Of a DNA stretch of 64,000 bases, positions 5-13,778 are shown piece by piece; position 1 is the first letter of the stretch, and every line of letters starts with the position of its first letter. Made by a program: the position numbers and the translations under genes. The DNA comes from Escherichia phage vb_EcoM_bov11CS3. Where the stretch lies: sequence record MT884009.2; one strand, written 5' to 3'. The notes below the pieces were generated by a model. It searched no databases. It saw only the letters and a program-made list of their open reading frames with translations, and was not told where the DNA came from.

Positions 5-1987
5 TTATTTGGTGTTATTCTTTGTATCAATCAGCTCACGGTATTCAATCATAGCAGGGGTGTCCCAATATTTCAAGCCTACATGCTTCAAAAGTGGGTA
101 TTTCTTTTCCAATCTTGCAATATAGGCCTTCCCGCATTTAACTCGGTTGGCGATTAAGATTTTGGCACGATGATTTAGCTCACTGTGCTTCCACGTGGTG
201 TTACCTTCCCACTTGTGGAAATGTGGCCGATAATTTCCAAAATCTTGCATGGGAATAATTTTCCCTAATTGTCTATACAGGCTGTCATAAGAAGTCTCAT
301 TTGCTGCACGGGTCAGTAAGAATTTCCAAGCATCCTCTTTCAACAGGTGCTCCACATTCTTCTCTGTAACATACTGGCAATCAGGATCAGTCCAAAGCAG
401 ACGAGATTCAGATACCAGATACAGATCTTCACCTTCAGGAATCTGAAGTGCCGCACGTACACGGTCATAATCTTGCTGGTAGATGTTACTCATCTGCCCC
501 AGCCAACAACTTCCACGTTGGATATCACCCTCATAAGGGATGCAGTGTTTAATCTTCCGGAACTCTGCCTTAGTAATACGCTCACGGCGGAAGTAACCAT
601 CCTTCTCAAGTTTTTTAACCCAATAGCCTGGCTCATAATGAGTTTTTGTTTCACCTTTCTTCGCAGGTCGGCGAGGGAGCTCTGATAACAATTTGATCGT
701 ATCTGCAAAGAACGGGTGGTGTGCTGCCTCTTTAAACTCTTTCACCAGATCAGTGTTCCGGCAATAGAAAACGTTGCGTCCGGTGATCTCGCTTAAGTAG
801 TTACACTTATTTCGGTTATATTTGCCGTCTCCGTCGTTAAATACTAAATAAACTCCCCGTAAGAATTCTACCTTTCCGTAACAAGCGTAACCTATGCGGC
901 CTTTATTTAAGCCGCCAGCGAAGATCTCACAGTCCCCCAAATTTCCTAGGCCTGTCTCTTCCCATCGTTCCCACATAAAATTCTTACCGAAGATGTGCCC
1001 GAACACTCCACTGTTCTTCATCATCTCGCGTGCTTCTGAGGATGTTTTTGCTGTCTCCAATTCCGCAACAACTTCTGCCCCACGTAAACGGATACCCTCT
1101 TTGACAAAAGCCTCCAGGCGATCCTGGAATCCACCGTCGTCATGGCCCTCTATGGTCCATTCGCGCCCAGGGTTAATATTGCAATCCCCAATAGGAATCT
1201 CTACACAGATTGCAGGGTAGTCTGTCAATGTTTCCAGGAATTTAGATCGGTAAGGTTGGTGACCCATTACCACGCGACTCTCGTCAGAGCTGGTATAACC
1301 TTTCAGGATAGTCATTTTCCAACCATCTTTCTCGTAGCGATACTGCGCCTCAACCTTGTCACCTTCCAGCATCTTACTGGTCATAGGGTCGGTAACGGTA
1401 AACGGAAACTTTGCATAGCGTAGGCATGACGCAATAGCAGTGCGATATTTCAGAACATGCTCTTTCTTAACATGGAACTGAACTTTTACCCCGTTGTGCT
1501 CTTCAGTCTTCCGCTCGCGGATCTTGGTAACGTTTGGGATACCCTGATCCAAGAACAATAGATATGTGCTTTCAACACCGTTGTGCACACTAATCACATC
1601 GAAAGTGTCCACCATGCTGAACGGGGCCTTTGAACCTACACCTTTATTACCTACCAGAGCGTTGCTGTTGCGCTTGGTTGACTCCCCGAGGTTCATGAAA
1701 GTGTTGCGGACCATCTCTTCTGACATACCCAATCCAACGTCCTGCACAAAGAAGTATGGTTCAAGGTCTGTAGGGGAGTGAATGATGATCGGTACATCAC
1801 CCCGTCCAGACTCAACATGGGAGTCCACAGCATTGAAGATTGGTTCACGGCAGCTTGCCAGCACCTTATCTTCGTAAATCCCTTTAATGATTAGCCCAAA
1901 AGTCTCTTTGTTCAGAGAAATTGAGCCCCTGGTGACCTCCATATTCCCGGTTAGTACTGCTTTAGTTTCATTACTGTTTACAATCAT
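5..1987 (-). CDS. rIIA: rIIA-like protein with N-terminal GHKL (histidine-kinase-like) ATPase domain, 660 aa
   Basis: GHKL motifs in translation: N-box EPIFNAVDSH, G1 DVGLGMS, G2 GNKGVGSKAPF. Stop codon at 5-7, so the gene is complete. Family assignment from remembered rIIA architecture, not searched. Confidence 0.5.
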   Translation of the reverse strand: MIVNSNETKAVLTGNMEVTRGSISLNKETFGLIIKGIYEDKVLASCREPIFNAVDSHVESGRGDVPIIIHSPTDLEPYFFVQDVGLGMSEEMVRNTFMNLGESTKRNSNALVGNKGVGSKAPFSMVDTFDVISVHNGVESTYLLFLDQGIPNVTKIRERKTEEHNGVKVQFHVKKEHVLKYRTAIASCLRYAKFPFTVTDPMTSKMLEGDKVEAQYRYEKDGWKMTILKGYTSSDESRVVMGHQPYRSKFLETLTDYPAICVEIPIGDCNINPGREWTIEGHDDGGFQDRLEAFVKEGIRLRGAEVVAELETAKTSSEAREMMKNSGVFGHIFGKNFMWERWEETGLGNLGDCEIFAGGLNKGRIGYACYGKVEFLRGVYLVFNDGDGKYNRNKCNYLSEITGRNVFYCRNTDLVKEFKEAAHHPFFADTIKLLSELPRRPAKKGETKTHYEPGYWVKKLEKDGYFRRERITKAEFRKIKHCIPYEGDIQRGSCWLGQMSNIYQQDYDRVRAALQIPEGEDLYLVSESRLLWTDPDCQYVTEKNVEHLLKEDAWKFLLTRAANETSYDSLYRQLGKIIPMQDFGNYRPHFHKWEGNTTWKHSELNHRAKILIANRVKCGKAYIARLEKKYPLLKHVGLKYWDTPAMIEYRELIDTKNNTK

Positions 1988-2484
1988 TTATTGCGCTCCT
2001 TGTAGTAGATATGACTCCCGAATTGAGCTGTCCTCTGCATCTTTTTTGCCCATTTCGGTCGTACTTTGGTTGTATGGTAGTGTGTTGCTCCACCTGTTAT
2101 GTCCATAGCCATGTATGCAACATGGTTGTTATTATAGACCTTTAGAAGCATCTTTGCAAGACTTTTAGCGTGATCCCATGAATCTTTTTCTGTCACCTTA
2201 AAAGTTTTGCCGTGGTTTGTCCACGAAAACTGGTTAGGTTGGTAGACAATCTTTCTTATAGTGTCTGGGTATTTGGGGTGAGATTTCCTGTTTAGTGTGG
2301 CAAACCCTGATGCCAGCATACCCATCGTGCCATCCCCTCTAGCCTCCCTGTAGATATTGCATGCCAGAATGTTTTCCTTAGTATCTGAGGGCTTGCAAGT
2401 ATGATATACTTTTTGTTTTGGTGCTGCAACAACAGGCAGCGATAAAAATGCGCTCAAAATAATAGCAAAGATCTTAATTTTCAC
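1984..2484 (-). CDS. SleB-type cell wall hydrolase with N-terminal signal peptide, 166 aa (endolysin candidate)
   Basis: N-terminus MKIKIFAIILSAFLSLPVVAAP looks like a Sec signal. Domain pattern NIYREARGDG ... YQPNQFSW ... GGATHYH fits the SleB/Hydrolase_2 family. 4-nt overlap with the downstream gene. Confidence 0.65.
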   Translation of the reverse strand: MKIKIFAIILSAFLSLPVVAAPKQKVYHTCKPSDTKENILACNIYREARGDGTMGMLASGFATLNRKSHPKYPDTIRKIVYQPNQFSWTNHGKTFKVTEKDSWDHAKSLAKMLLKVYNNNHVAYMAMDITGGATHYHTTKVRPKWAKKMQRTAQFGSHIYYKERNK

Positions 2485-2491
2485 AATAACT

Positions 2492-2521
2492 CCAAATAGA
2501 AAATCCCCGCCGAAGCGGGGG
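2492..2521 (-). terminator. Rho-independent terminator-like hairpin
   Basis: Plus-strand CCCCGCCGAAGCGGGG (2505-2520); on the minus strand the stem is followed by ATTTTCTATTT. Lies between the 126-aa gene and the hydrolase gene. Confidence 0.5.
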
Positions 2522-2533
2522 AGGTCTTAGAAA

Positions 2534-2914
2534 TTAATCGTAGTGTGCCAAAATCTCTCCATCGTTGCAAGTTCCCTCTACAAAGTTATGAAGATTCATG
2601 CACTCATCTTGATAGAAGAATTTACCGCTTTTCAGCCGTAAGCCAAACAACTCCGCATCTCCACGATGGCAAGCCTCTACAAGTTCATAGATTTCATACG
2701 GCAACTCTCCGTCGTCATGGAAGAACCCAGCCTTATCGTTGACATAGATGAAGAAATAATCACTGCTATCGCAAGCGTCCAATATTTTAAACCAGATTTC
2801 ATCTACATCTTTTTCTCGGATATCAATCACGCAAGTGGAGCTGCATTCGTACTCCTTCTCCGGCTCCTCGGTCAATACCACCCGGTAATTTCCCCGCTTA
2901 CCTACTTTAGCCAT
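2534..2914 (-). CDS. hypothetical protein, 126 aa
   Basis: ORF track; compact spacing with neighbours; no recognisable motif. Confidence 0.5.
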   Translation of the reverse strand: MAKVGKRGNYRVVLTEEPEKEYECSSTCVIDIREKDVDEIWFKILDACDSSDYFFIYVNDKAGFFHDDGELPYEIYELVEACHRGDAELFGLRLKSGKFFYQDECMNLHNFVEGTCNDGEILAHYD

Positions 2915-2923
2915 ACAACCCCC

Positions 2924-4108
2924 TTAAGCTTTAGCTAAAATGGCGCTAAACTCTTCACCAAACTCTTTTACAATCTTCATCAGGTTTGGGTACGCTTTGA
3001 TCAGTTGAGCAACGATCTTGTCACGCCCTTTACCGATAAGCAAGGCATTTCCTAAGGCATTAGGTTTCATCATCGCCATAAAGACTGAGAATACAAAATC
3101 TCGGTTCTCGTCCTTGAAGTTTTCCCAAAGGAAATCGAGGAAGTTTGCCACGCAGCTGACAAGATCTTCATCTGAGATACTTGCATTTTCCATCATATTA
3201 CGAATAGCGATACAACCTTCAGATCCAAGAATCCACAAGATGTCTGGCTGCTTAGGACCTACGTATTCTTTGCAACCCCCTGCCATAATCCGACCGATTT
3301 CCGGTAAATTGCGTTTCTTGGTGTGGTAGGTCCAGATCTCTACCGCTGCAGTGTGACCAATAGCACCTTGCAGAAGAACACGGGCCATAGCGTCAGAAAT
3401 AATACCGCTGTCAAAATCGTGCAGGATATCAGATGCAGCAACCCAAGATCGCGGTGTGGCAAAAGATGGGCAATTAATCTCAGCCATAGCCTCATAATTA
3501 TCAATAGCTGACGGAACTCTTTTCAGATACCCAATTACAGAGGAGTGCACTCCATTAAGGAATGCGTAGTCCTCAATAAACACCTCTGCATTGCTTGTAA
3601 CTTCTACAATGATAAAACGGTTAGCCAGAGGGGCTTCAAGCGCCGAAAGAACCGCACCATCTGTAGAACGGTTACCTGCAGCTACAAAAACAGAGCCCTT
3701 AGGGAATGCATAGGTGCCGCACTTGTGGTCGAGCATAATTTGCATTGCAACCTTTTGCAGGTAATTATCTGCATGAGTAAGCTCATCCAGAAAGATAATT
3801 CCGCTCCAGTCCGGATCTGCAGGCCAGAATTCTGGAATTGCAAACACTGTACGTGTAGTTCCATCCGCTTCTACAGGGATAGGTAGCCCAGATAAGTCGG
3901 CAGGATCTTTATCTGACAGTCGCACGTCAACCAGGTTGTCATCTCGCTCACCGAACATATTATCGGCGATCTGCTTCATCACCTGGCTCTTCCCCACGCC
4001 CATTGGTCCTAAAATCAGGACAGATCGGTTATGACGTTGGGCAAACTGAATGATAGCTGGCAACTCACGGACAGTGATTTGACCACTTTCAAATACGTTT
4101 CTTGACAT
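2924..4108 (-). CDS. MoxR-like AAA+ ATPase (AAA_5/CbbQ-type), 394 aa
   Basis: Walker A ILGPMGVGKS, Walker B IIFLDELTHAD, downstream AAGNRSTDG...LANRF segment typical of MoxR-type ATPases. Confidence 0.7.
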   Translation of the reverse strand: MSRNVFESGQITVRELPAIIQFAQRHNRSVLILGPMGVGKSQVMKQIADNMFGERDDNLVDVRLSDKDPADLSGLPIPVEADGTTRTVFAIPEFWPADPDWSGIIFLDELTHADNYLQKVAMQIMLDHKCGTYAFPKGSVFVAAGNRSTDGAVLSALEAPLANRFIIVEVTSNAEVFIEDYAFLNGVHSSVIGYLKRVPSAIDNYEAMAEINCPSFATPRSWVAASDILHDFDSGIISDAMARVLLQGAIGHTAAVEIWTYHTKKRNLPEIGRIMAGGCKEYVGPKQPDILWILGSEGCIAIRNMMENASISDEDLVSCVANFLDFLWENFKDENRDFVFSVFMAMMKPNALGNALLIGKGRDKIVAQLIKAYPNLMKIVKEFGEEFSAILAKA

Positions 4109-4401
4109 TAGTAAAAGTCCTCTACTTGTGTGTAAGTGTTTTCAAAGTTTTCCAAAACAGATGCCACATCGGATCTGTCAATATCGTACACAACTTCCCA
4201 GTTGTATGCAACCCTTTCTGCTGTTGCTTCTTCAGGACTTAGCCGTCTACTGGGGTGAAAGAATGTTGGGGTACACCTTCTTAGTTGTCTTCCGGTTTTC
4301 CCATAACAATATCTGTGGATAACTTTGTCAAAATTTAACTCTTTTTCTGCACAAAGTTCGTGTTTCTGGTATAACATGTTTATTACTCTTCTAAGCGGCA
4401 T
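4108..4401 (-). CDS. hypothetical protein (start uncertain: 4416 GTG, 4401 ATG or 4377 ATG)
   Basis: ORF track; ATG at 4401 is preceded by GGTGGTGG; overlaps stop of upstream gene. Confidence 0.4.
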   Translation of the reverse strand: MPLRRVINMLYQKHELCAEKELNFDKVIHRYCYGKTGRQLRRCTPTFFHPSRRLSPEEATAERVAYNWEVVYDIDRSDVASVLENFENTYTQVEDFY

Positions 4402-4419
4402 CCCTGCCACCACCACCTG

Positions 4420-4800
4420 CTAGAATGCAGTTCGAATCCAGACAAGGTTCTTATCTGCCCAATCATAGAGGCAAGTCATTGCGCTATTGAATTGCTCACA
4501 CGGAGGATAATCTTCTTCCATCTGGCGCATAGCAGATCCTTGTGGGTAAAGCTCCCGTGCTGCAAGCCACGCATCGTAGTCATCCACGGTATCGAAGTAG
4601 TATACAACATCCTCCAACTCAGGATCGAACTTTGAATTATCAGGATCCAGTTGTTCAGGGAACTTGGAGCGTAACTTGCCAGCCACAATGCTTGCCAACT
4701 CGCTAACATGCTTATTGTCCCACTCTACTAGTTTCCCGTCTTCAGCGATGCGTCCTAACCACTGATCATGAAGGTCAACTGTTGTCTTCCACCGGGCCAT
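4420..4800 (-). CDS. hypothetical protein, 126 aa
   Basis: ORF track; acidic, Trp-rich; no recognisable motif. Confidence 0.5.
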   Translation of the reverse strand: MARWKTTVDLHDQWLGRIAEDGKLVEWDNKHVSELASIVAGKLRSKFPEQLDPDNSKFDPELEDVVYYFDTVDDYDAWLAARELYPQGSAMRQMEEDYPPCEQFNSAMTCLYDWADKNLVWIRTAF

Positions 4801-4802
4801 TA

Positions 4803-5060
4803 TCAGTCCACCTCTTCTTCTCGTTGCAGTTCAAGATACCCGTAGGTCTGGATATCTTCAAGGGTGTGGAAATCCCCATCTGCCGCTAAGGCACGAACAA
4901 CTTGGCACAAAACTTTATGAGGAACTTCATCCAGACCCAGATTCAGTGCAGGGAACACCTTATCTAAGTCAACAAAATAAACGAACTGTAGCTCACCAGC
5001 TTCAAAAGGTGTATCTTCAATAAACATCTTCTCGGCATTAGTCAAGATCTGCACTTTCAT
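4803..5060 (-). CDS. hypothetical protein, 85 aa
   Basis: ORF track; 2-nt gap to neighbour. Confidence 0.45.
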   Translation of the reverse strand: MKVQILTNAEKMFIEDTPFEAGELQFVYFVDLDKVFPALNLGLDEVPHKVLCQVVRALAADGDFHTLEDIQTYGYLELQREEEVD

Positions 5061-5437
5061 TATTCTGCCTCCTCTTCTTTTTCTTCGGCGTTAGTTTCAG
5101 TGCTACCCCACTCTGGAGTTTCCACCTCGATAGTAAACTCACGCACTACACGGTAATTGCCCATGAAGCGCTCCACCTCGTCAAGGCTTATGGCGAGGCC
5201 ATTGGCAACCAGGTCTGCAGCACCCTCTTCTACCAGATAGTCCAGATTGGCTTCCAAAGCTTCAGGCTCGAACCCTGTCAATGCAATCAGATAACCTTTC
5301 CCTTCATCAGGTAGGACAATACAGCCCAACTGATTTTCTTTAAAAAGGCAGTGACCATCATTATTGATGGGGTGTTCATTGCAGTAAATAGCTGCACGAT
5401 AAGTAGCTTTAGACATCGGTAAGGCCTCCTTAGGCAA
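5060..5437 (-). CDS. hypothetical protein, 125 aa
   Basis: ORF track; start overlaps upstream gene. Confidence 0.5.
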   Translation of the reverse strand: MPKEALPMSKATYRAAIYCNEHPINNDGHCLFKENQLGCIVLPDEGKGYLIALTGFEPEALEANLDYLVEEGAADLVANGLAISLDEVERFMGNYRVVREFTIEVETPEWGSTETNAEEKEEEAE

Positions 5438-5708
5438 TTGTCATTTTACATTCTTGAAATTTTAACACAAGACGGTGATTGTGTCTAGTGTCTAAAAAGA
5501 TTTTTTCAACCATCAGGCACACGGTATAACCGTCCATCTTGTTAACAACAAAATCTCCAAGGTGAGGGAGGATGTCCCCTGGATTGGGGAAACATAACCC
5601 GCTCAAGAAGGCATCATCGGTGGTGGACTTAATGGATTTCCACACATTGTCTGCCTGAACATTTTCACCCACATAGTATACACTACCACATGCCTTCATC
5701 ATAGTCAA
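5430..5708 (-). CDS. hypothetical protein, 92 aa
   Basis: ORF track; overlapping stop/start with neighbours. Confidence 0.45.
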   Translation of the reverse strand: MTMMKACGSVYYVGENVQADNVWKSIKSTTDDAFLSGLCFPNPGDILPHLGDFVVNKMDGYTVCLMVEKIFLDTRHNHRLVLKFQECKMTIA

Positions 5709-6604
5709 ATCTCCGCGTAAATTAAACTGGAATCAGTATACTTCTTTAACGGGTAAATATCCTGTCCATAGATGCCGTCATTAAACACCTCATCTACCCA
5801 AAGGCTACACTTATATCCCATCATTTCTAAAACGCCCATCTCTTCTTCGGTGAACTTATCACCGCTCTTGCAAGATGTCAATACCTCATTCTGTACTCTT
5901 GCTACCTCGAAGCGGTTATTGGCAATATCACTATTGGCAATCAAATACTCACCTAAAGGGTGTGCAGCATTAAAGATGCACAGTGGACGGTTGACGTAAT
6001 AGTCTCCTGGTGTATAAAAATTGTTGAGATCCTTCACCAGAACATTCTTATCAGTCACTTCATTTATAACATCATGCATATCACACATCTTTATATGTTT
6101 GAGGATTCCATCCCCCATCACAAAATAAAAACTTGCTGAGACACTCTCGGCATAGATCTTACTAGATCCGTTGTAGTTGTATTTTACGCGAATGCTTACA
6201 GGGGTTTTGCCTGTCGCGTTAGCCATCATCCAAAGGAACGGAAGTTCAAACCTCTCCTCTGAGGAAACAAAAGGTGAAGTTGCCAGAGATCGGAAACCTC
6301 CAGAAAAGTTGAAAGTTACAGAGCCGCTCCGGCGATATGATACCGCATATTCTACTTTTATATCGACATAGCCGTTGGAGTAAGTGTGGCCTCCATTATC
6401 CAGATATGTCCACTTATCAGATCCGGATACCAGCCTACGCTCAATAACCTTCATTACTATAGGAATTAGCGGGTTGGTACAAACCGATTTTGAAGTAGCT
6501 TTATCATCCAAAGCCTCATAAATTGCAGAAAGGATATCACCTGCTGAGAGATTGGTTGTGATATCTTGTTTCCACCGAGTGCTAAAGCTGTTAAGATTTG
6601 CCAT
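5705..6604 (-). CDS. hypothetical protein, 299 aa (start moved to ATG at 6604)
   Basis: ATG at 6604 is preceded by AGGAG (sense ACAGGAGCACTTAATCATG); the track start at 6646 has no such site. Confidence 0.55.
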   Translation of the reverse strand: MANLNSFSTRWKQDITTNLSAGDILSAIYEALDDKATSKSVCTNPLIPIVMKVIERRLVSGSDKWTYLDNGGHTYSNGYVDIKVEYAVSYRRSGSVTFNFSGGFRSLATSPFVSSEERFELPFLWMMANATGKTPVSIRVKYNYNGSSKIYAESVSASFYFVMGDGILKHIKMCDMHDVINEVTDKNVLVKDLNNFYTPGDYYVNRPLCIFNAAHPLGEYLIANSDIANNRFEVARVQNEVLTSCKSGDKFTEEEMGVLEMMGYKCSLWVDEVFNDGIYGQDIYPLKKYTDSSLIYAEI

Positions 6605-6644
6605 GATTAAGTGCTCCTGTGTTCGTTTTCTTTCGAATGGGTGC

Positions 6645-6673
6645 ACTATATCGTAGATTTATAGTAAAGTCAA
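6645..6673 (-). promoter_or_regulatory. sigma70-like promoter for the leftward gene block
   Basis: Minus-strand reading: TTGACT (rc of 6668-6673), 17-nt spacer, TATAGT (rc of 6645-6650). Confidence 0.45.
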
Positions 6674-6686
6674 CACGTTTTTGAGG

Positions 6687-6715
6687 TTGACATCTGTCGA
6701 GGCACTTGATAAGAT
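6687..6715 (+). promoter_or_regulatory. sigma70-like promoter for the rightward gene block
   Basis: TTGACA 6687-6692, 17-nt spacer, TAAGAT 6710-6715; about 30 nt upstream of the ATG at 6747. Confidence 0.4.
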
Positions 6716-6746
6716 TTCTTCACCTGCAGAGCACGAGAGACAACTC

Positions 6747-7724
6747 ATGAATCTTGAAAAATATTATACACCAGAAGAGTTAGAGCGCCTGCTCAAAAAA
6801 TACAGACGCAAACAAAATAATGCACGGAAACGAGATATAGAGTTCAACCTGTCATGGGAAGAATACCTCCTATTTGGTAAAAAACTTTTAGGAGAGGGGG
6901 TATGCGACTATACCCTTATACCTTTCGACATGCACACAGATGAAAACGGGCTGGGGAATCCTTTCTACCCATCTCTGGAGCGGATAGATGATGAAGGTCC
7001 TTACGCAATTGACAATTGTTGTGTGGTAGGGTTGAGGTGCAACGCTCTGAAAGACTGTCTGGTAGATAAAAAGACTGCAATATTGATAAAAGACAAAACT
7101 GATCGAAAAATTGTCCAGCAGATGATGCTTCACCTGAGCGAAGAGCGTATGGAGAAATTGAAAGGTGATTATACTTTTGAAGATTTCATCTTGCAATATG
7201 GGACAGAAGAAGATAAACTAGCACTTTTTGACGAAGAGGAAGAAGATATGTCACCAATGCAGGACTTTAAAAATTTCATGGCTGATCGTGCAGCCAACAA
7301 ACACATTTCAGACATCGTAAACGAAACTGTGACAGAAGAAATTGGAGAACAGAACTCTGAAGAGGAAAAAGAGCCTCAGGAGGTCGAAGAGGAGATTGCA
7401 GAAGAGGTTCCTGCACTGCCTGATGATGTTGAGGTTGCTAAGGCTTACACTTTCTATTGTCAAACGTTCTACGATGCAGGTATGAAAGTTGATCTGTCGT
7501 TCAGCCAATTTAAGAGTTCGTATGTTCGCAAATGCTGTGCTTTAACTGGTGAACGTCTCGGAGCTGGACTTAAGCCCCTGTTAGTGACCGACTGGAATAA
7601 AGGTTTCACCAAAGGTAACTTTATGGTAGTATCTCCAATTATGGAGAAAGCTATGACAGATCTTATGAAGACCACCCGCATGACAATGACAGAGTTGGCA
7701 GGTATTTTCAAACACGTTAAATAA
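6747..7724 (+). CDS. hypothetical protein, 325 aa, with acidic region; possible degenerate HNH/EndoVII-like segment
   Basis: Start moved from track TTG at 6681 to ATG at 6747. Segment SLERIDDEGPYAIDNCCVVGLRCNALK resembles an HNH beta-beta-alpha motif but lacks the first His. Acidic tract EEEEDMSP...EVEEEIAEEV. Confidence 0.5.
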   Translation: MNLEKYYTPEELERLLKKYRRKQNNARKRDIEFNLSWEEYLLFGKKLLGEGVCDYTLIPFDMHTDENGLGNPFYPSLERIDDEGPYAIDNCCVVGLRCNALKDCLVDKKTAILIKDKTDRKIVQQMMLHLSEERMEKLKGDYTFEDFILQYGTEEDKLALFDEEEEDMSPMQDFKNFMADRAANKHISDIVNETVTEEIGEQNSEEEKEPQEVEEEIAEEVPALPDDVEVAKAYTFYCQTFYDAGMKVDLSFSQFKSSYVRKCCALTGERLGAGLKPLLVTDWNKGFTKGNFMVVSPIMEKAMTDLMKTTRMTMTELAGIFKHVK

Positions 7725-7729
7725 TGACA

Positions 7730-7744
7730 GGGGCCATTGGCCCC
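7730..7744 (+). terminator. GC hairpin (possible terminator/attenuator) after the 325-aa gene
   Basis: GGGGCCATTGGCCCC palindromic stem directly after the stop at 7722-7724, followed by TTCTGGAGTTTT, which also contains the RBS of the next gene. Confidence 0.35.
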
Positions 7745-7757
7745 TTCTGGAGTTTTA

Positions 7758-9218
7758 ATGGATAGCAGAAGTTCAGAAATCATTGCCTCACAAAAAGATG
7801 ATGCCCTGAGAATGTTGCAGGCTGCACGTATGTATCTCCTTGAAAAGCTGCCGTTTTACGGCACACTGCTGTCAGGGTTGCAGTTCGTAGAAAACCACAC
7901 ATGGTGCTCCACCATGGCAACCGACCATAAACGCATCTACTACAGCCCCGAATTCATTATGGGATTGGCAGATGAGCGCAAAACAATTCTTAAAGCATCT
8001 CTGACTGACGAGCAGTTTGAAATGGCTGAGGTTTTCTATTCCCCTAAATCTGTGAAAGAGGTGGCCTTTCTTCTGTCACATGAGGTGGGGCATATTATCT
8101 GTGATCACCTAGTCCGTGGTAAAAGCTTTGAGCCAGAGCTGTTCAATATTGCTTGTGATCACGTTATCAACACAGGCCTTGTGGTGGACTTTAGCAAGCC
8201 TCCTTGTGTTTTCTTCCCGAAGGGGAAAAGCACTACGTTCGTAAAAGGTAAGCCTTTTGGTTTCTTAGCCAGCTGCTACTGCGACATGAGGTTTCATGGA
8301 TGGATTGCTGAGAACGTCTATGCAGTTCTTGATAAGCAAAGAGATCAGAATAACGGTAAAAGTAAGAGTGGTAAAGGTGATAACTCTCAGGGGGATAAGC
8401 GACAAACCGATGATCACATGAGTGGGAACGGTGGCACCAGTGATGATCTCGGAAAGGCTATGGGGTATGATCAGCCACAACCTGTAATCAGCCAATCTGA
8501 TAAAGATCAGGCCATGCAAGACTCTGGTGACATGCTGGAAGCAGCAATGCAAGCTTCTGGAGGTAGTTGCCCTGAGGCGGTGCGTGAGTTTGTCAAGAAC
8601 AGAGGTAAGCCTGTAATCAACTATATAGACATCATTAAGCAACGTATGTTGTCTAAACGAAAGGCTGAACTAACCTACAGAAAGCCTGGTCGCCGATCTG
8701 GATCTTTGACCAGCACAATGCGAAAAGTTGGGGCTATAAACAAGAACCAGCACGTTATTGTTCCTGGTCGTAATCCGGAAAACACTATAGATATTGTGGT
8801 GGCTTTAGACGTTTCTGGCTCGATCTCTCAAAGAACTTTAAAGAAAATGTTCAATGAGATCACCGGATTGTGCAATCTGTATAAAGAGTTTAAGGTTACG
8901 ATGTTCTGTTGGTCAACCGAGGTTGGAGAGGTCAAAGTATACACTCGCGGCAACATAGACGAGATGATCAACTATGAGGTCCACTCAACATGGGGCACAA
9001 CAGCTGCTTGCGTGTTCGAGTATCTGGATGCCAATATACCGAATGCAAAAGATGTCATCGTCCTGACCGACCTATACTTTGAGCATAACTTTGAACAAAA
9101 GGCTGTTGACAACAAGTGGAAAAAGTACGATACTTTATGGGTTCTCACCGAGGGGTATAATAAAAATTATATCCCGAGCTTTGGGAAAACTGTGGAATTA
9201 ATCGAATACGCCAAGTAA
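7758..9218 (+). CDS. vWA-domain protein with N-terminal HExxH metallopeptidase-like domain (DUF2201/CobT-like), 486 aa
   Basis: HExxH in SHEVGHIICDH; vWA MIDAS-type motif DVSGSIS plus downstream TWGTT and LTD. Start moved to ATG 7758 (GGAG 5 nt upstream). Confidence 0.7.
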   Translation: MDSRSSEIIASQKDDALRMLQAARMYLLEKLPFYGTLLSGLQFVENHTWCSTMATDHKRIYYSPEFIMGLADERKTILKASLTDEQFEMAEVFYSPKSVKEVAFLLSHEVGHIICDHLVRGKSFEPELFNIACDHVINTGLVVDFSKPPCVFFPKGKSTTFVKGKPFGFLASCYCDMRFHGWIAENVYAVLDKQRDQNNGKSKSGKGDNSQGDKRQTDDHMSGNGGTSDDLGKAMGYDQPQPVISQSDKDQAMQDSGDMLEAAMQASGGSCPEAVREFVKNRGKPVINYIDIIKQRMLSKRKAELTYRKPGRRSGSLTSTMRKVGAINKNQHVIVPGRNPENTIDIVVALDVSGSISQRTLKKMFNEITGLCNLYKEFKVTMFCWSTEVGEVKVYTRGNIDEMINYEVHSTWGTTAACVFEYLDANIPNAKDVIVLTDLYFEHNFEQKAVDNKWKKYDTLWVLTEGYNKNYIPSFGKTVELIEYAK

Positions 9219-9233
9219 GAGAGGACGTTATTT

Positions 9234-9491
9234 ATGGCAACAGAAGTAGTAATCAAATCTGAACGCCCAGTTAAAAAAGCTATCAACACGTTCCCTGTGG
9301 GAACCATTGTGAGCATGATCACAGAGTCAGGCCGTGTATCTACGCTGCTGATTGTGAAATCTGCATGTTCTTCTTGTGTGTGGGCTTACGATCTGGACGA
9401 GAAAGAACTAAAAGATTTTGTTGGGGAGCTGAAAGCAACAGAGCTCGATGCTCGTATCGAAGTATTTGGTGAAACTGTGGAGGAAGAGTAA
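9234..9491 (+). CDS. hypothetical protein, 85 aa
   Basis: ORF track; tightly packed in operon. Confidence 0.5.
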   Translation: MATEVVIKSERPVKKAINTFPVGTIVSMITESGRVSTLLIVKSACSSCVWAYDLDEKELKDFVGELKATELDARIEVFGETVEEE

Positions 9492-9754
9492 TGACCACGA
9501 AAATCACTATTGCAGAACCGAAAGCTAACACGCAACCTATCGAAAAATTTAAATGTGGTGAGGTGGTAACATTTACACCAGATAATGAGGATGCTAAGAT
9601 TTTCGCCATGGTCACAGCTGAGTGGATGTGCGACAATACCACACAGGTTCTGCGTTTTGACACCTATCTTACAGATGAAATCAGGAACGACAAGATCGTG
9701 ACTGGTGTTGATACTGAAATTGTTTTCTACAAGAGCTTTTTAGAGGGTTTCTGA
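9491..9754 (+). CDS. hypothetical protein, 87 aa
   Basis: ORF track; start overlaps previous stop. Confidence 0.5.
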   Translation: MTTKITIAEPKANTQPIEKFKCGEVVTFTPDNEDAKIFAMVTAEWMCDNTTQVLRFDTYLTDEIRNDKIVTGVDTEIVFYKSFLEGF

Positions 9755-9755
9755 T

Positions 9756-9989
9756 ATGGCAAAAATTCGTAAATTATCCAACAATCAGGTTGTGAAAGAC
9801 TTTGAATCTGGAGAGATTCTTTATGTTCGTGATGCAGATGACGAAGGTGAAGATCTTGTTATGTTGGTAGGGCACGCTGAGGACGGATGCATCCAAGCTG
9901 TTTTTCTTGAAACAGCTATGGTGCACTGGATAGAGCTGGACCTGAAAGCACGAAAACCTAAAGCAGAAATCTTGATTTACGAAGATTAA
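9756..9989 (+). CDS. hypothetical protein, 77 aa
   Basis: ORF track. Confidence 0.5.
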   Translation: MAKIRKLSNNQVVKDFESGEILYVRDADDEGEDLVMLVGHAEDGCIQAVFLETAMVHWIELDLKARKPKAEILIYED

Positions 9990-10005
9990 CAAAAAGGAGA
10001 GAGCC

Positions 10006-10455
10006 GTGTTGAGCAAACGTGAATGCGACAGCATTAGCCTAAATTCTTATAAGAAACAATGGTTTGGGGTGGAAGTTTGCCGACTGCGGCTAGGCTCCTA
10101 CCTGAACTTCGTTTATTATGAGAGCGACAGCCGTATCGTTTCTTATGAAGTGTTCTACACTAAGAACACATTCGAACTGCGCCGTAAAGCAGAGGGAGGG
10201 AGAACTACCACCCAGAATAATTGGGAAACTATTCTGCCTCCAGATGTTATAGGAAGTCCCCTGAATGTATCTGAAGATGAAAATCTTATGGTTCATGCTA
10301 TGATGGGACTTGACAGCTTAGAGCTGGCGATCTATGATATGTCCATCGAAGCAGTTAAGCTGGACTACATCGAAAACACTTTAGAGGAAGGTATCAAGAA
10401 GTTTCTCAGTGAGAAATTAAAAGATCACTTTCATAAGGAGCTATACCTGTTATGA
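10006..10455 (+). CDS. hypothetical protein, 149 aa (GTG start)
   Basis: AAGGAGA at 9994-10000, 5 nt before GTG at 10006. Confidence 0.5.
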   Translation: MLSKRECDSISLNSYKKQWFGVEVCRLRLGSYLNFVYYESDSRIVSYEVFYTKNTFELRRKAEGGRTTTQNNWETILPPDVIGSPLNVSEDENLMVHAMMGLDSLELAIYDMSIEAVKLDYIENTLEEGIKKFLSEKLKDHFHKELYLL

Positions 10456-10697
10456 AGACTCGTAAAGAACGTAACAAAATTTTACCTGGAGCTCTCGAAC
10501 ACCTGATGAAGTGCAGATCTATTTGGCACTCTGCCAAGGAAGGGCAGAAGGTGGTTGTGGTTAGTGACAATACCAACCCGTTTGGAGATTATACCACTAT
10601 GATGGCCCCATATGTCCGTGATGGCGTTGTGGAAGTGGTCCCTTACAACGGTCTGCATGAACGGCACTTTGAAAGCACTTTGCTAGTGGAGCTATAG
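10452..10697 (+). CDS. hypothetical protein, 81 aa
   Basis: ORF track; 4-nt overlap with upstream gene. Confidence 0.5.
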   Translation: MKTRKERNKILPGALEHLMKCRSIWHSAKEGQKVVVVSDNTNPFGDYTTMMAPYVRDGVVEVVPYNGLHERHFESTLLVEL

Positions 10698-13743: not shown

Positions 13744-13778
13744 AAAAAGAAAGGGGCCAAACGGCCCCTTTTTATTTT
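13744..13778. terminator. bidirectional Rho-independent terminator between convergent blocks
   Basis: AAAAAGAAA-GGGGCCAAACGGCCCC-TTTTTATTTT: GC stem with A-tract on one side and T-tract on the other. Confidence 0.6.

Follow-up and report, generated by a model that had tools for sequence, protein, structure and literature searches.

A AAA+ ATPase and a zincin-vWA protein encoded on opposite strands of an rV5-like phage as probable subunits of one conserved phage module

Escherichia phage vb_EcoM_bov11CS3 (MT884009.2) encodes an AAA+ ATPase and a protein that joins a zincin-like (HExxH) domain to a von Willebrand factor A (vWA) domain, and the locus raises the question of whether these two proteins, whose genes lie on opposite strands, work together and what they might work on. 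We analysed a window of 64,000 nucleotides of this genome, in which an earlier note, made from the letters alone, had placed the two genes on either side of a divergent promoter region. Both open reading frames (ORFs) and their orientation were confirmed. The ATPase gene occupies positions 2924-4108 on the minus strand and encodes 394 amino acids (rV5 gp4, 'MoxR - ATPase'; homologue of N4 gp24), and the vWA gene occupies 7758-9218 on the plus strand and encodes 486 amino acids (rV5 gp12(+gp13); homologue of N4 gp25). Their start codons are 3,649 bp apart, on either side of a 142-bp intergenic strand switch at 6605-6746. The vWA gene starts with ATG, with GGAG 5 nt upstream, and the mechanically called ORF opens at TTG 7737. 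Both ORFs are carried as genes in 100%-identical and in related GenBank records.

We investigated the partnership of the two genes in 80 viral contigs with a relative of the vWA protein and 80 with a relative of the ATPase, each with 10-kb flanks. Three contigs were common to the two sets, and the contigs behind the counts are not all independent. In the vWA set, the ATPase gene was found within 10 kb upstream in 75 of the 80 contigs, and in four of the five exceptions the vWA gene lay at the contig end, which leaves 75 of 76 evaluable contigs. The vWA gene was found downstream in 70 of the 80 contigs of the ATPase set, and nine of the other ten ended less than 200 bp from the ATPase gene (70 of 71 evaluable); one contig, L120, continued for 1,067 bp past the ATPase gene without a vWA gene. 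With the shared contigs allowed for, both genes were present in ~142 of 144 evaluable viral loci. Co-occurrence, which the earlier note had named beforehand as a check, with consistent absence as the result that would count against a pair, thus proved to be near-obligate.

The coupling extends over a wide range of phages. A tblastn search of a curated phage collection found the two proteins in 818 and 723 records, respectively, and the leading groups were largely the same for both: rV5-like phages, N4-like Schitoviridae, gammaproteobacterial jumbo phages and Aeromonas phages. Bacillus phage AR9 was among the vWA matches and Thermus phage phiYS40 among the ATPase matches. A cassette of AAA_3/AAA_5 followed by DUF2201 was also found on a cellular contig of 1.25 Mb, in surroundings free of structural genes. 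In a 578-kb, megaphage-sized contig (L085; JGI 3300046660, 62-10591), the pair is located between genes for ClpX, Hsp20 and ClpS and a gene for ClpP, together with a ribosomal protein S21 gene, and these proteostasis-themed surroundings provide supporting context for a remodelling or proteolytic role. We conclude that the two ORFs are almost certainly true partners, the two subunits of one conserved phage module.

The gene order in other lineages bears on how the two genes came to be separated. In loci that are not of the rV5 type, the order was ATPase followed by vWA on one strand in 58 of 58 loci of the vWA set and 68 of 68 of the ATPase set; gaps did not exceed 517 bp in any of the 68, and 48 of the 58 had gaps of 800 bp or less, the remainder containing one or more inserted genes, with gaps of up to 8.5 kb. 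The claim of the earlier note that MoxR ATPases and vWA proteins act as a pair and are usually adjacent is thus borne out outside the rV5-like lineage. In 17 rV5-like loci the genes were instead on opposite strands, 3.4-5.1 kb apart. Certrevirus, which also belongs to the Vequintavirinae, has the pair adjacent in the rightward arm; in phage CR3, the ATPase gene (CR3_112) and the vWA gene (CR3_113) are 67 bp apart, and the divergent switch is at ~69.0-69.1 kb. Since Certrevirus and all outgroups have adjacent genes, the split in the rV5-like part of the Vequintavirinae appears to be derived, very probably by a lineage-specific rearrangement. In the ancestry of Vequintavirus and its close relatives, the ATPase gene would have moved to the leftward arm, and the vWA gene would have stayed in the rightward arm. 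After the split, both genes lie 1-2.5 kb from one promoter region. The arrangement is best described as a rearranged, well-populated and already annotated module, with no special design.

We next describe the vWA protein, for which the assignment of an HExxH domain and a vWA domain by the earlier note held up. Pfam matched DUF2201_N at 97.7 bits (cutoff, 23.2) and DUF2201 at 44 bits (cutoff, 26.4), both above the gathering score; the two models correspond to the COG 'predicted metal-dependent peptidase' family. The family is large, with 27,977 representatives at 50% identity and E<=1e-3 in genomes and metagenomes. The conservation counts come from distinct homologues encoded on viral contigs, 126 of the ATPase and 119 of the vWA protein, with a median identity to the window proteins of 29-30%. 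The zinc-site motif HEVGHIICDH (8079-8108, +; H108, E109, H112 and H117) and the motif NIACDHVIN (8145-8171, +; N130, A132, D134 and N138) were invariant, with all eight residues unvaried in the 119 vWA homologues (median identity, 29%). The metal ion-dependent adhesion site (MIDAS) is complete, comprising D351-x-S353-x-S355 (8808-8822, +), T414 (8997-8999, +) and D438 (9069-9071, +), and its five residues were kept in 118-119 of the 119 homologues, as was P336. The HExxH motif is predicted to lie on a helix (residues 99-118) with a three-stranded sheet ahead of it, and the C-terminal half has a Rossmann-like vWA fold. In the PDB profile and Foldseek searches only the vWA half was matched, and a PDB search with the single sequence gave no matches. 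The N-terminal domain would be zincin-like by its motif, with the invariant H117 and D134 as candidate third zinc ligands. Between the two domains lies a basic linker, LTYRKPGRRSGS (8670-8705, +), which was modelled with low confidence; its R312 is nearly invariant, position 309 is R or K in 109 of the 119 homologues, and we speculate that it could be a pore-engaging or processing segment.

The vWA gene of the rV5 reference (NC_011041, 7756-9217) differs from that of the window by one extra T at ~9006 (gene position 1249, residue 417). The insertion breaks the gene between the codons for the MIDAS residues T414 and D438, giving gp12 (441 aa) and gp13 (81 aa), and it is either a sequencing error or a mutation of the laboratory stock. 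The frameshift was considered as a sign that the vWA gene is dispensable in culture, as a stock mutation would imply, but two rV5-derived genomes, rV5_ev168 and rV5_ev147, keep an intact gene of 1,461 nt.

The ATPase was examined in the same way. It contains a Walker A motif, GPMGVGKS (residues 34-41; 3986-4009, -), whose K40 and S41 were invariant in the 126 homologues, and a Walker B motif, D108-E109 (3782-3787, -), whose D was kept in 125 and whose E in all 126. A further stretch (3449-3673, -) carries three residues that were likewise invariant: N146 (3671-3673, -), R164 in an ANRF motif (3617-3619, -) and R220 (3449-3451, -). From their positions in the predicted AAA+ fold, these would be sensor 1, the putative arginine finger and sensor 2, respectively, and the full AAA+ catalytic set would then be kept in 125-126 of the 126 homologues. 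An AlphaFold2 model (predicted local distance difference test score, pLDDT, 84) placed a beta-hairpin with strands 75-81 and 84-90 after helix 69-73 and a short hairpin (129-134) ahead of strand 138-145, that is, before sensor 1. A hairpin insert in helix 2 together with a hairpin before sensor 1 is the topology of the MoxR/dynein/MCM clade, and it is lacking in ClpB-type ATPases.

The MoxR call of the earlier note stood at the level of the family and of the predicted fold and fell short for the window protein by itself, which scored 16.7 bits against AAA_5 (PF07728; cutoff, 22) and did not match AAA_3 (PF07726). Relatives at 31-35% identity matched AAA_3 (the MoxR model), AAA_5 and in some cases bpMoxR; 19 of 43 family members matched both AAA_3 and AAA_5 (best, 2.4e-9 and 3.1e-8), and six matched bpMoxR. 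A profile of the 43 sequences matched midasin AAA modules at 3.9e-10. A PDB search with the single sequence gave P-loop matches to Clp ATPases only, and the profile search of the PDB with the ATPase family found no sequence-level match to CbbQ, NorQ or RavA; the closest solved structures were those of the MoxR ATPases CbbQ and NorQ. NCBIfam contained nothing specific for the ATPase or the vWA protein, and in PADLOC-DB v2, which covers known anti-phage defence systems, the vWA protein was unmatched and the ATPase gave P-loop-level matches only (E>=5.6e-4). The family profile and the predicted fold together strongly suggest that the ORF at 2924-4108 encodes an AAA+ ATPase of the MoxR/dynein/midasin (helix-2-insert) clade.

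The closest counterparts of the pair are found in other phages. N4 gp24 (ATPase) and gp25 (vWFA) of the Schitoviridae aligned with the window proteins in hhalign at 1.7e-35 and 1.5e-43, respectively, and share the HExxHxxxxH and DxSGS motifs; in both phages the pair lies in a non-structural part of the genome with rIIA/rIIB nearby. The N4 genes differ in being adjacent on one strand, 167 bp apart, in encoding shorter proteins (352 and 380 aa) and in being middle genes expressed by N4 RNAPII. The core set of N4-like phages, 14 genes in all, includes both (PMC4193335). Group 2.2 jumbo phages encode a MoxR ATPase and a vWA protein with an N-terminal metallopeptidase domain (Iyer, Anantharaman, Krishnan, Burroughs and Aravind 2021, Viruses 13:63; PMC7824862). 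Homologues of both window proteins were found by tblastn in the jumbo phages K64-1, slurp01, Serratia BF and Yersinia fHe-Yen9-04, and they were adjacent in slurp01 and BF, the two that were checked. From the shared architecture and these matches, we infer that the two families are the same, although the window phage is a 136-kb non-jumbo phage with the genes on opposite strands and 3.65 kb apart.

More distant systems offer models of function. NorQ/NorD and CbbQ/CbbO, of the CbbQ/GvpN/NorQ subfamily, differ in the absence of a peptidase domain from their vWA partners and in having the metalloenzymes cNOR and Rubisco as clients, and the window ATPase has, compared with NorQ and CbbQ, an extra helical C-terminal region of ~110 residues. 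In NorQ-NorD, the vWA partner binds to the hexamer and inserts a finger into its central pore, so that hydrolysis remodels the partner and then the client (PMC13036017). FtsH-type AAA+ zinc proteases are a functional analogy only: an AAA+ ring joined to an HExxH peptidase would give ATP-dependent proteolysis, but in FtsH, which belongs to the classical AAA clade, one polypeptide carries both the ATPase and an M41 peptidase, a vWA domain and MIDAS are absent, and homology was neither found nor is it claimed here.

By analogy with NorQ-NorD and CbbQ-CbbO, gp4 would form a hexameric ring on which the vWA domain of gp12 would dock, and the MIDAS ion would bind an acidic residue of the target protein. 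ATP hydrolysis would then pull or twist the complex of adaptor and target, and the tethered zinc peptidase might cut the remodelled target or the adaptor itself. The net result would be an ATP-dependent protease distributed over two polypeptides, with its targets chosen via the MIDAS site. Because the key residues are invariant or nearly so, selection appears to keep an active ATPase, a zinc site with its catalytic Glu and a metal-dependent adhesion site, and we regard a generic mechanism of this remodeller-plus-protease kind as fairly probable.

The same components would also suit a cofactor- or metal-insertion activase like NorQ/NorD, CbbQ/CbbO, CobS/CobT and BchI/BchD, which would load a metal into, or free a metal or an inhibitor from, a phage or host metalloenzyme, with the HExxH motif as a metal-handling site and not a protease. 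The nearest solved structures, CbbQ and NorQ, fit such a role, and rV5 encodes several metalloenzymes, with its ribonucleotide reductases as one candidate client. However, the invariant HExxH Glu and the conserved NxAxDxxxN motif are, in part on general knowledge, typical of a hydrolytic zincin and not of a metal chaperone, and the rV5-like, N4-like, jumbo-phage and cellular loci share no linked gene that would be a candidate client. Although activation of this kind is the best-documented activity of MoxR/vWA pairs (PMC13036017, PMC9976466), we consider it improbable here.

To place the remodeller-plus-protease pair in the infection cycle, we examined the strand switch and the transcription units. 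Two sigma70-like sites are placed back to back in the switch: TTGACT-17-TATAGT (6673->6645, -) and TTGACA-17-(TG)TAAGAT (6687-6715, +), the latter at the position of the rV5-annotated promoter P11. Promoters in both directions have been described between genes 10 and 11 of rV5 (PMC3606486), and the rV5 annotation has an extra promoter, P4, just 5' of the ATPase gene. The leftward unit would comprise gp10, gp9, gp8, gp7, gp6, gp5, the ATPase gene and gp3 and would end at a terminator-like hairpin, CCCCGCTTCGGCGGGG, with a T-rich tail (2505-2520, -; consensus match only). The rightward unit starts with the gene for a Srd-like protein and the vWA gene and would end at a bidirectional terminator-like hairpin (13748-13773), which fits the bidirectional terminator between rV5 genes 26 and 27 and a GC-skew switch near 14 kb. 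In rV5, the late structural unit 27-81 is distinct from units 10-1 and 11-26 (PMC3606486). Coordinated early expression of the pair, as suggested by the earlier note, is plausible, with the qualifications that the gp24/gp25 transcripts of N4 are middle transcripts (PMC4193335) and that rV5 has the extra promoter P4.

The Srd-like protein, gp11 (6747-7724, +; 325 aa), matched the PHROG families of the T4 Srd anti-sigma protein and 'sigma70 decoy' (1.4e-9 to 3.1e-12) and endonuclease VII-like families, and had no Pfam match. Its gene lies 5' of the vWA gene in the rV5-like loci L009, L010 and L011, with a gap of ~1 kb in L010 and L011; no Srd-like homologue was detected within the 22-kb region of CR3 examined. 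The surroundings of the pair, with rIIA/B and the Srd-like gene in rV5-like phages and with replication and transcription genes around the N4 middle genes, favour a cytoplasmic, non-virion target. We therefore lean weakly, with the balance close to even, toward a non-structural target, either a host protein or a phage protein of replication or takeover. A narrower proposal, that the pair is an ATP-dependent, MIDAS-targeted protease used early or in the middle of infection against a host defence, stress-response or transcription/replication factor, is offered tentatively and is rather doubtful. If true, a host-directed protease would explain the intact catalytic residues across podo-, myo- and jumbo phages and the position of the vWA gene just 3' of the Srd-like anti-sigma gene in rV5-like phages.

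Several points weigh against the explanation as a whole, of which the timing and the target are the weakest step. Most of the MoxR/vWA systems with a characterised activity act in metal insertion or enzyme activation and not in protein degradation. The N-terminal domain of the vWA protein had no PDB sequence or fold match, the best being M48/BepA at E of about 1-2. Promoter-like matches were not enriched over shuffled sequence (17 versus 13.6±3.5; 44 versus 36.1±6.7), so the transcription map is one that we infer from position and the published rV5 annotation; of the divergent promoter region of the earlier note, the back-to-back sites and P11 speak for it and the shuffled controls do not, and both genes are only presumed to be early. 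The searchable literature yielded no experiment on any member of the phage family; a term search of the CRISPRi-ART paper gave nothing on these genes, and the LL12 host-factor screen reported lipopolysaccharide genes alone. Finally, the sole published proposal for the phage pair is a role in virion assembly (PMC7824862).

In that proposal, made for the same architecture in jumbo phages by analogy with the archaeal Acidianus two-tailed virus (ATV), the pair would be an assembly chaperone and maturation protease: it would fold or assemble structural proteins, of which the numerous rV5-like tail fibres are an example, and process them with its peptidase. ATV p618 (MoxR) and p892 (vWA) are by description a virus-encoded chaperone pair of this type and are the cited precedent (PMC7824862, PMC7159879), but they differ, again by description, in belonging to an archaeal virus, in a vWA protein with no peptidase domain and in a role in extracellular tail growth. 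MoxR proteins in general are assembly chaperones, and the gp24/25 homologues of N4-like roseophages adjoin a 'second structural module' expressed in mid-infection (PMC4193335). By contrast, the rV5 genes belong to units 10-1 and 11-26 with rIIA/B and the Srd-like gene, outside the late structural unit, and the N4 pair consists of middle genes between those for RNAPII and those for dCTP deaminase, helicase and polymerase. In the rows for genes 1-88 of the rV5 Table S3, gp4 and gp12 carry no 'MS evidence' (mass spectrometry) mark for the virion (PMC3606486). Podoviruses and myoviruses alike have the pair, as does a cellular chromosome that lacks structural genes in the vicinity, so that a virion substrate shared by all of them is not apparent. 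We consider an assembly role unlikely.

A further point against the module reading comes from an rV5-like contig of 136 kb (L010; IMGVR_UViG_3300045988_163358), in which the Srd-like and vWA genes are present and a search of the 10 kb to each side, even at E<=1, found no ATPase homologue; the ATPase gene is either further away or lost. This contig would suit an uncoupling of the two proteins after the split, in which the ATPase acts with a new partner such as the small ORF gp5 and the vWA protein acts alone or with the Srd-like protein. The stop codon of gp5 (4106-4410, -; 100 aa) overlaps the start codon of the ATPase gene (TAATG), and the Srd-like gene precedes the vWA gene in the three rV5-like loci named above. 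Uncoupling is nonetheless very improbable: both genes persist in 17 of 18 rV5-like loci, with no loss of catalytic or MIDAS residues, the small ORF is not kept beside the ATPase gene in the split-clade loci L009 and L011, and both genes of the window are within 2.5 kb of one promoter region. Taken as a whole, the reading of a two-subunit module, separated by rearrangement and acting as a remodeller and protease on a non-structural target, is the explanation that we favour with moderate confidence.

Part of this picture was known. The label MoxR was given to rV5 gp4 in 2013 and DUF2201_N was noted in gp12 (PMC3606486), and several GenBank records read 'MoxR ATPase' or 'putative metallopeptidase'. 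The N4 pair has been listed among the core genes since 2014 (PMC4193335), and the combination of MoxR and peptidase-vWA proteins was described in jumbo phages in 2021 (PMC7824862). New here are the linking of the two rV5 genes as one module, the quantification of their coupling, the polarity of the rearrangement and the invariance of the catalytic residues. The pair is among the most widely conserved phage gene pairs for which function is a matter of proposal, being core in N4-like phages and present in rV5-like and several jumbo phages, and the near-invariance of its ATPase, zinc and MIDAS residues over ~120 homologues each points to an active ATP-driven machine under strong selection, as judged from sequence. 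The split in rV5-like phages implies that co-translation is not needed, so that deletion or mutation of either gene could leave the other undisturbed. The pair is thus a reasonable entry point to a widespread phage function. The discovery is not surprising: the module is ordinary and already annotated, its order is rearranged, it founds no new category, and a misannotation, described below, is corrected.

The setting of the pair is that of a Vequintavirus (Vequintavirinae), a 136-kb myovirus. The 6.3-kb stretch from 2924 to 9218 is 100% identical to that of Escherichia phage vb_EcoM_bov22_2 and 95-99% identical to those of more than 100 rV5-like phages, and the window is almost colinear with the rV5 reference, with an offset of +2 to +4 bases. 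Gene names follow the rV5 gene table (PMC3606486, Table S3) and GenBank annotations. To the left of the ATPase gene, on the minus strand, are rIIA (5-1987), a SleB-type cell wall hydrolase gene (1984-2484) and gp3 (2534-2914). Between the ATPase gene and the strand switch lie six small or uncharacterised genes, gp5-gp10 (4108-6604, -). Of these, gp5 was also considered as a third subunit and rejected, as it is not kept beside the ATPase gene in the two split-clade loci; PHROG and RefSeq call it 'ATPase' without domain support. For gp10 (5705-6604, -), several records read 'putative alpha 1-3 fucosyltransferase', a label that rests on an old, weak BLAST similarity, and it had no matches in Pfam, NCBIfam or PADLOC.

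Other annotations and records deserve comment. The label 'HNH endonuclease' is attached to the vWA and Srd-like proteins (phrog_1314, phrog_3118; N4 NC_008720 gp25; rV5 NC_011041 gp11/gp12). For the vWA protein it was rejected, since Pfam at E<=0.01 gave DUF2201_N and DUF2201 only; with no HNH domain found by Pfam in either protein, the label seems to be a misannotation that has been passed on. Sixteen unannotated 'Campylobacter phage' records with C. jejuni as host (MG0656xx, e.g. MG065644 and MG065661) match the rV5-like window; those checked had 95.6% DNA identity and 98.6-99.7% protein identity to it, and they likely reflect contamination or a wrong host assignment. In a bacterial locus (L170; GCA_045600625.1, JAZRYF010000023.1), a DUF2201 protein is encoded directly downstream of a 378-aa gene with no Pfam match, in the neighbourhood of genes for an SNF2-like helicase, an M50-like protein, a Ser/Thr kinase, a PP2C, another vWA protein and a JAB domain protein, a setting that may represent a conflict or defence island. 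The 33 nt that separate the Srd-like gene from the vWA gene in the window contain, just 5' of the ribosome-binding site of the vWA gene, a perfect 7-bp GC-rich hairpin, AGGGGCC-ATT-GGCCCCT (7729-7745), which has no good T-tract on the plus strand and might serve in attenuation, in processing or in RNA stability.

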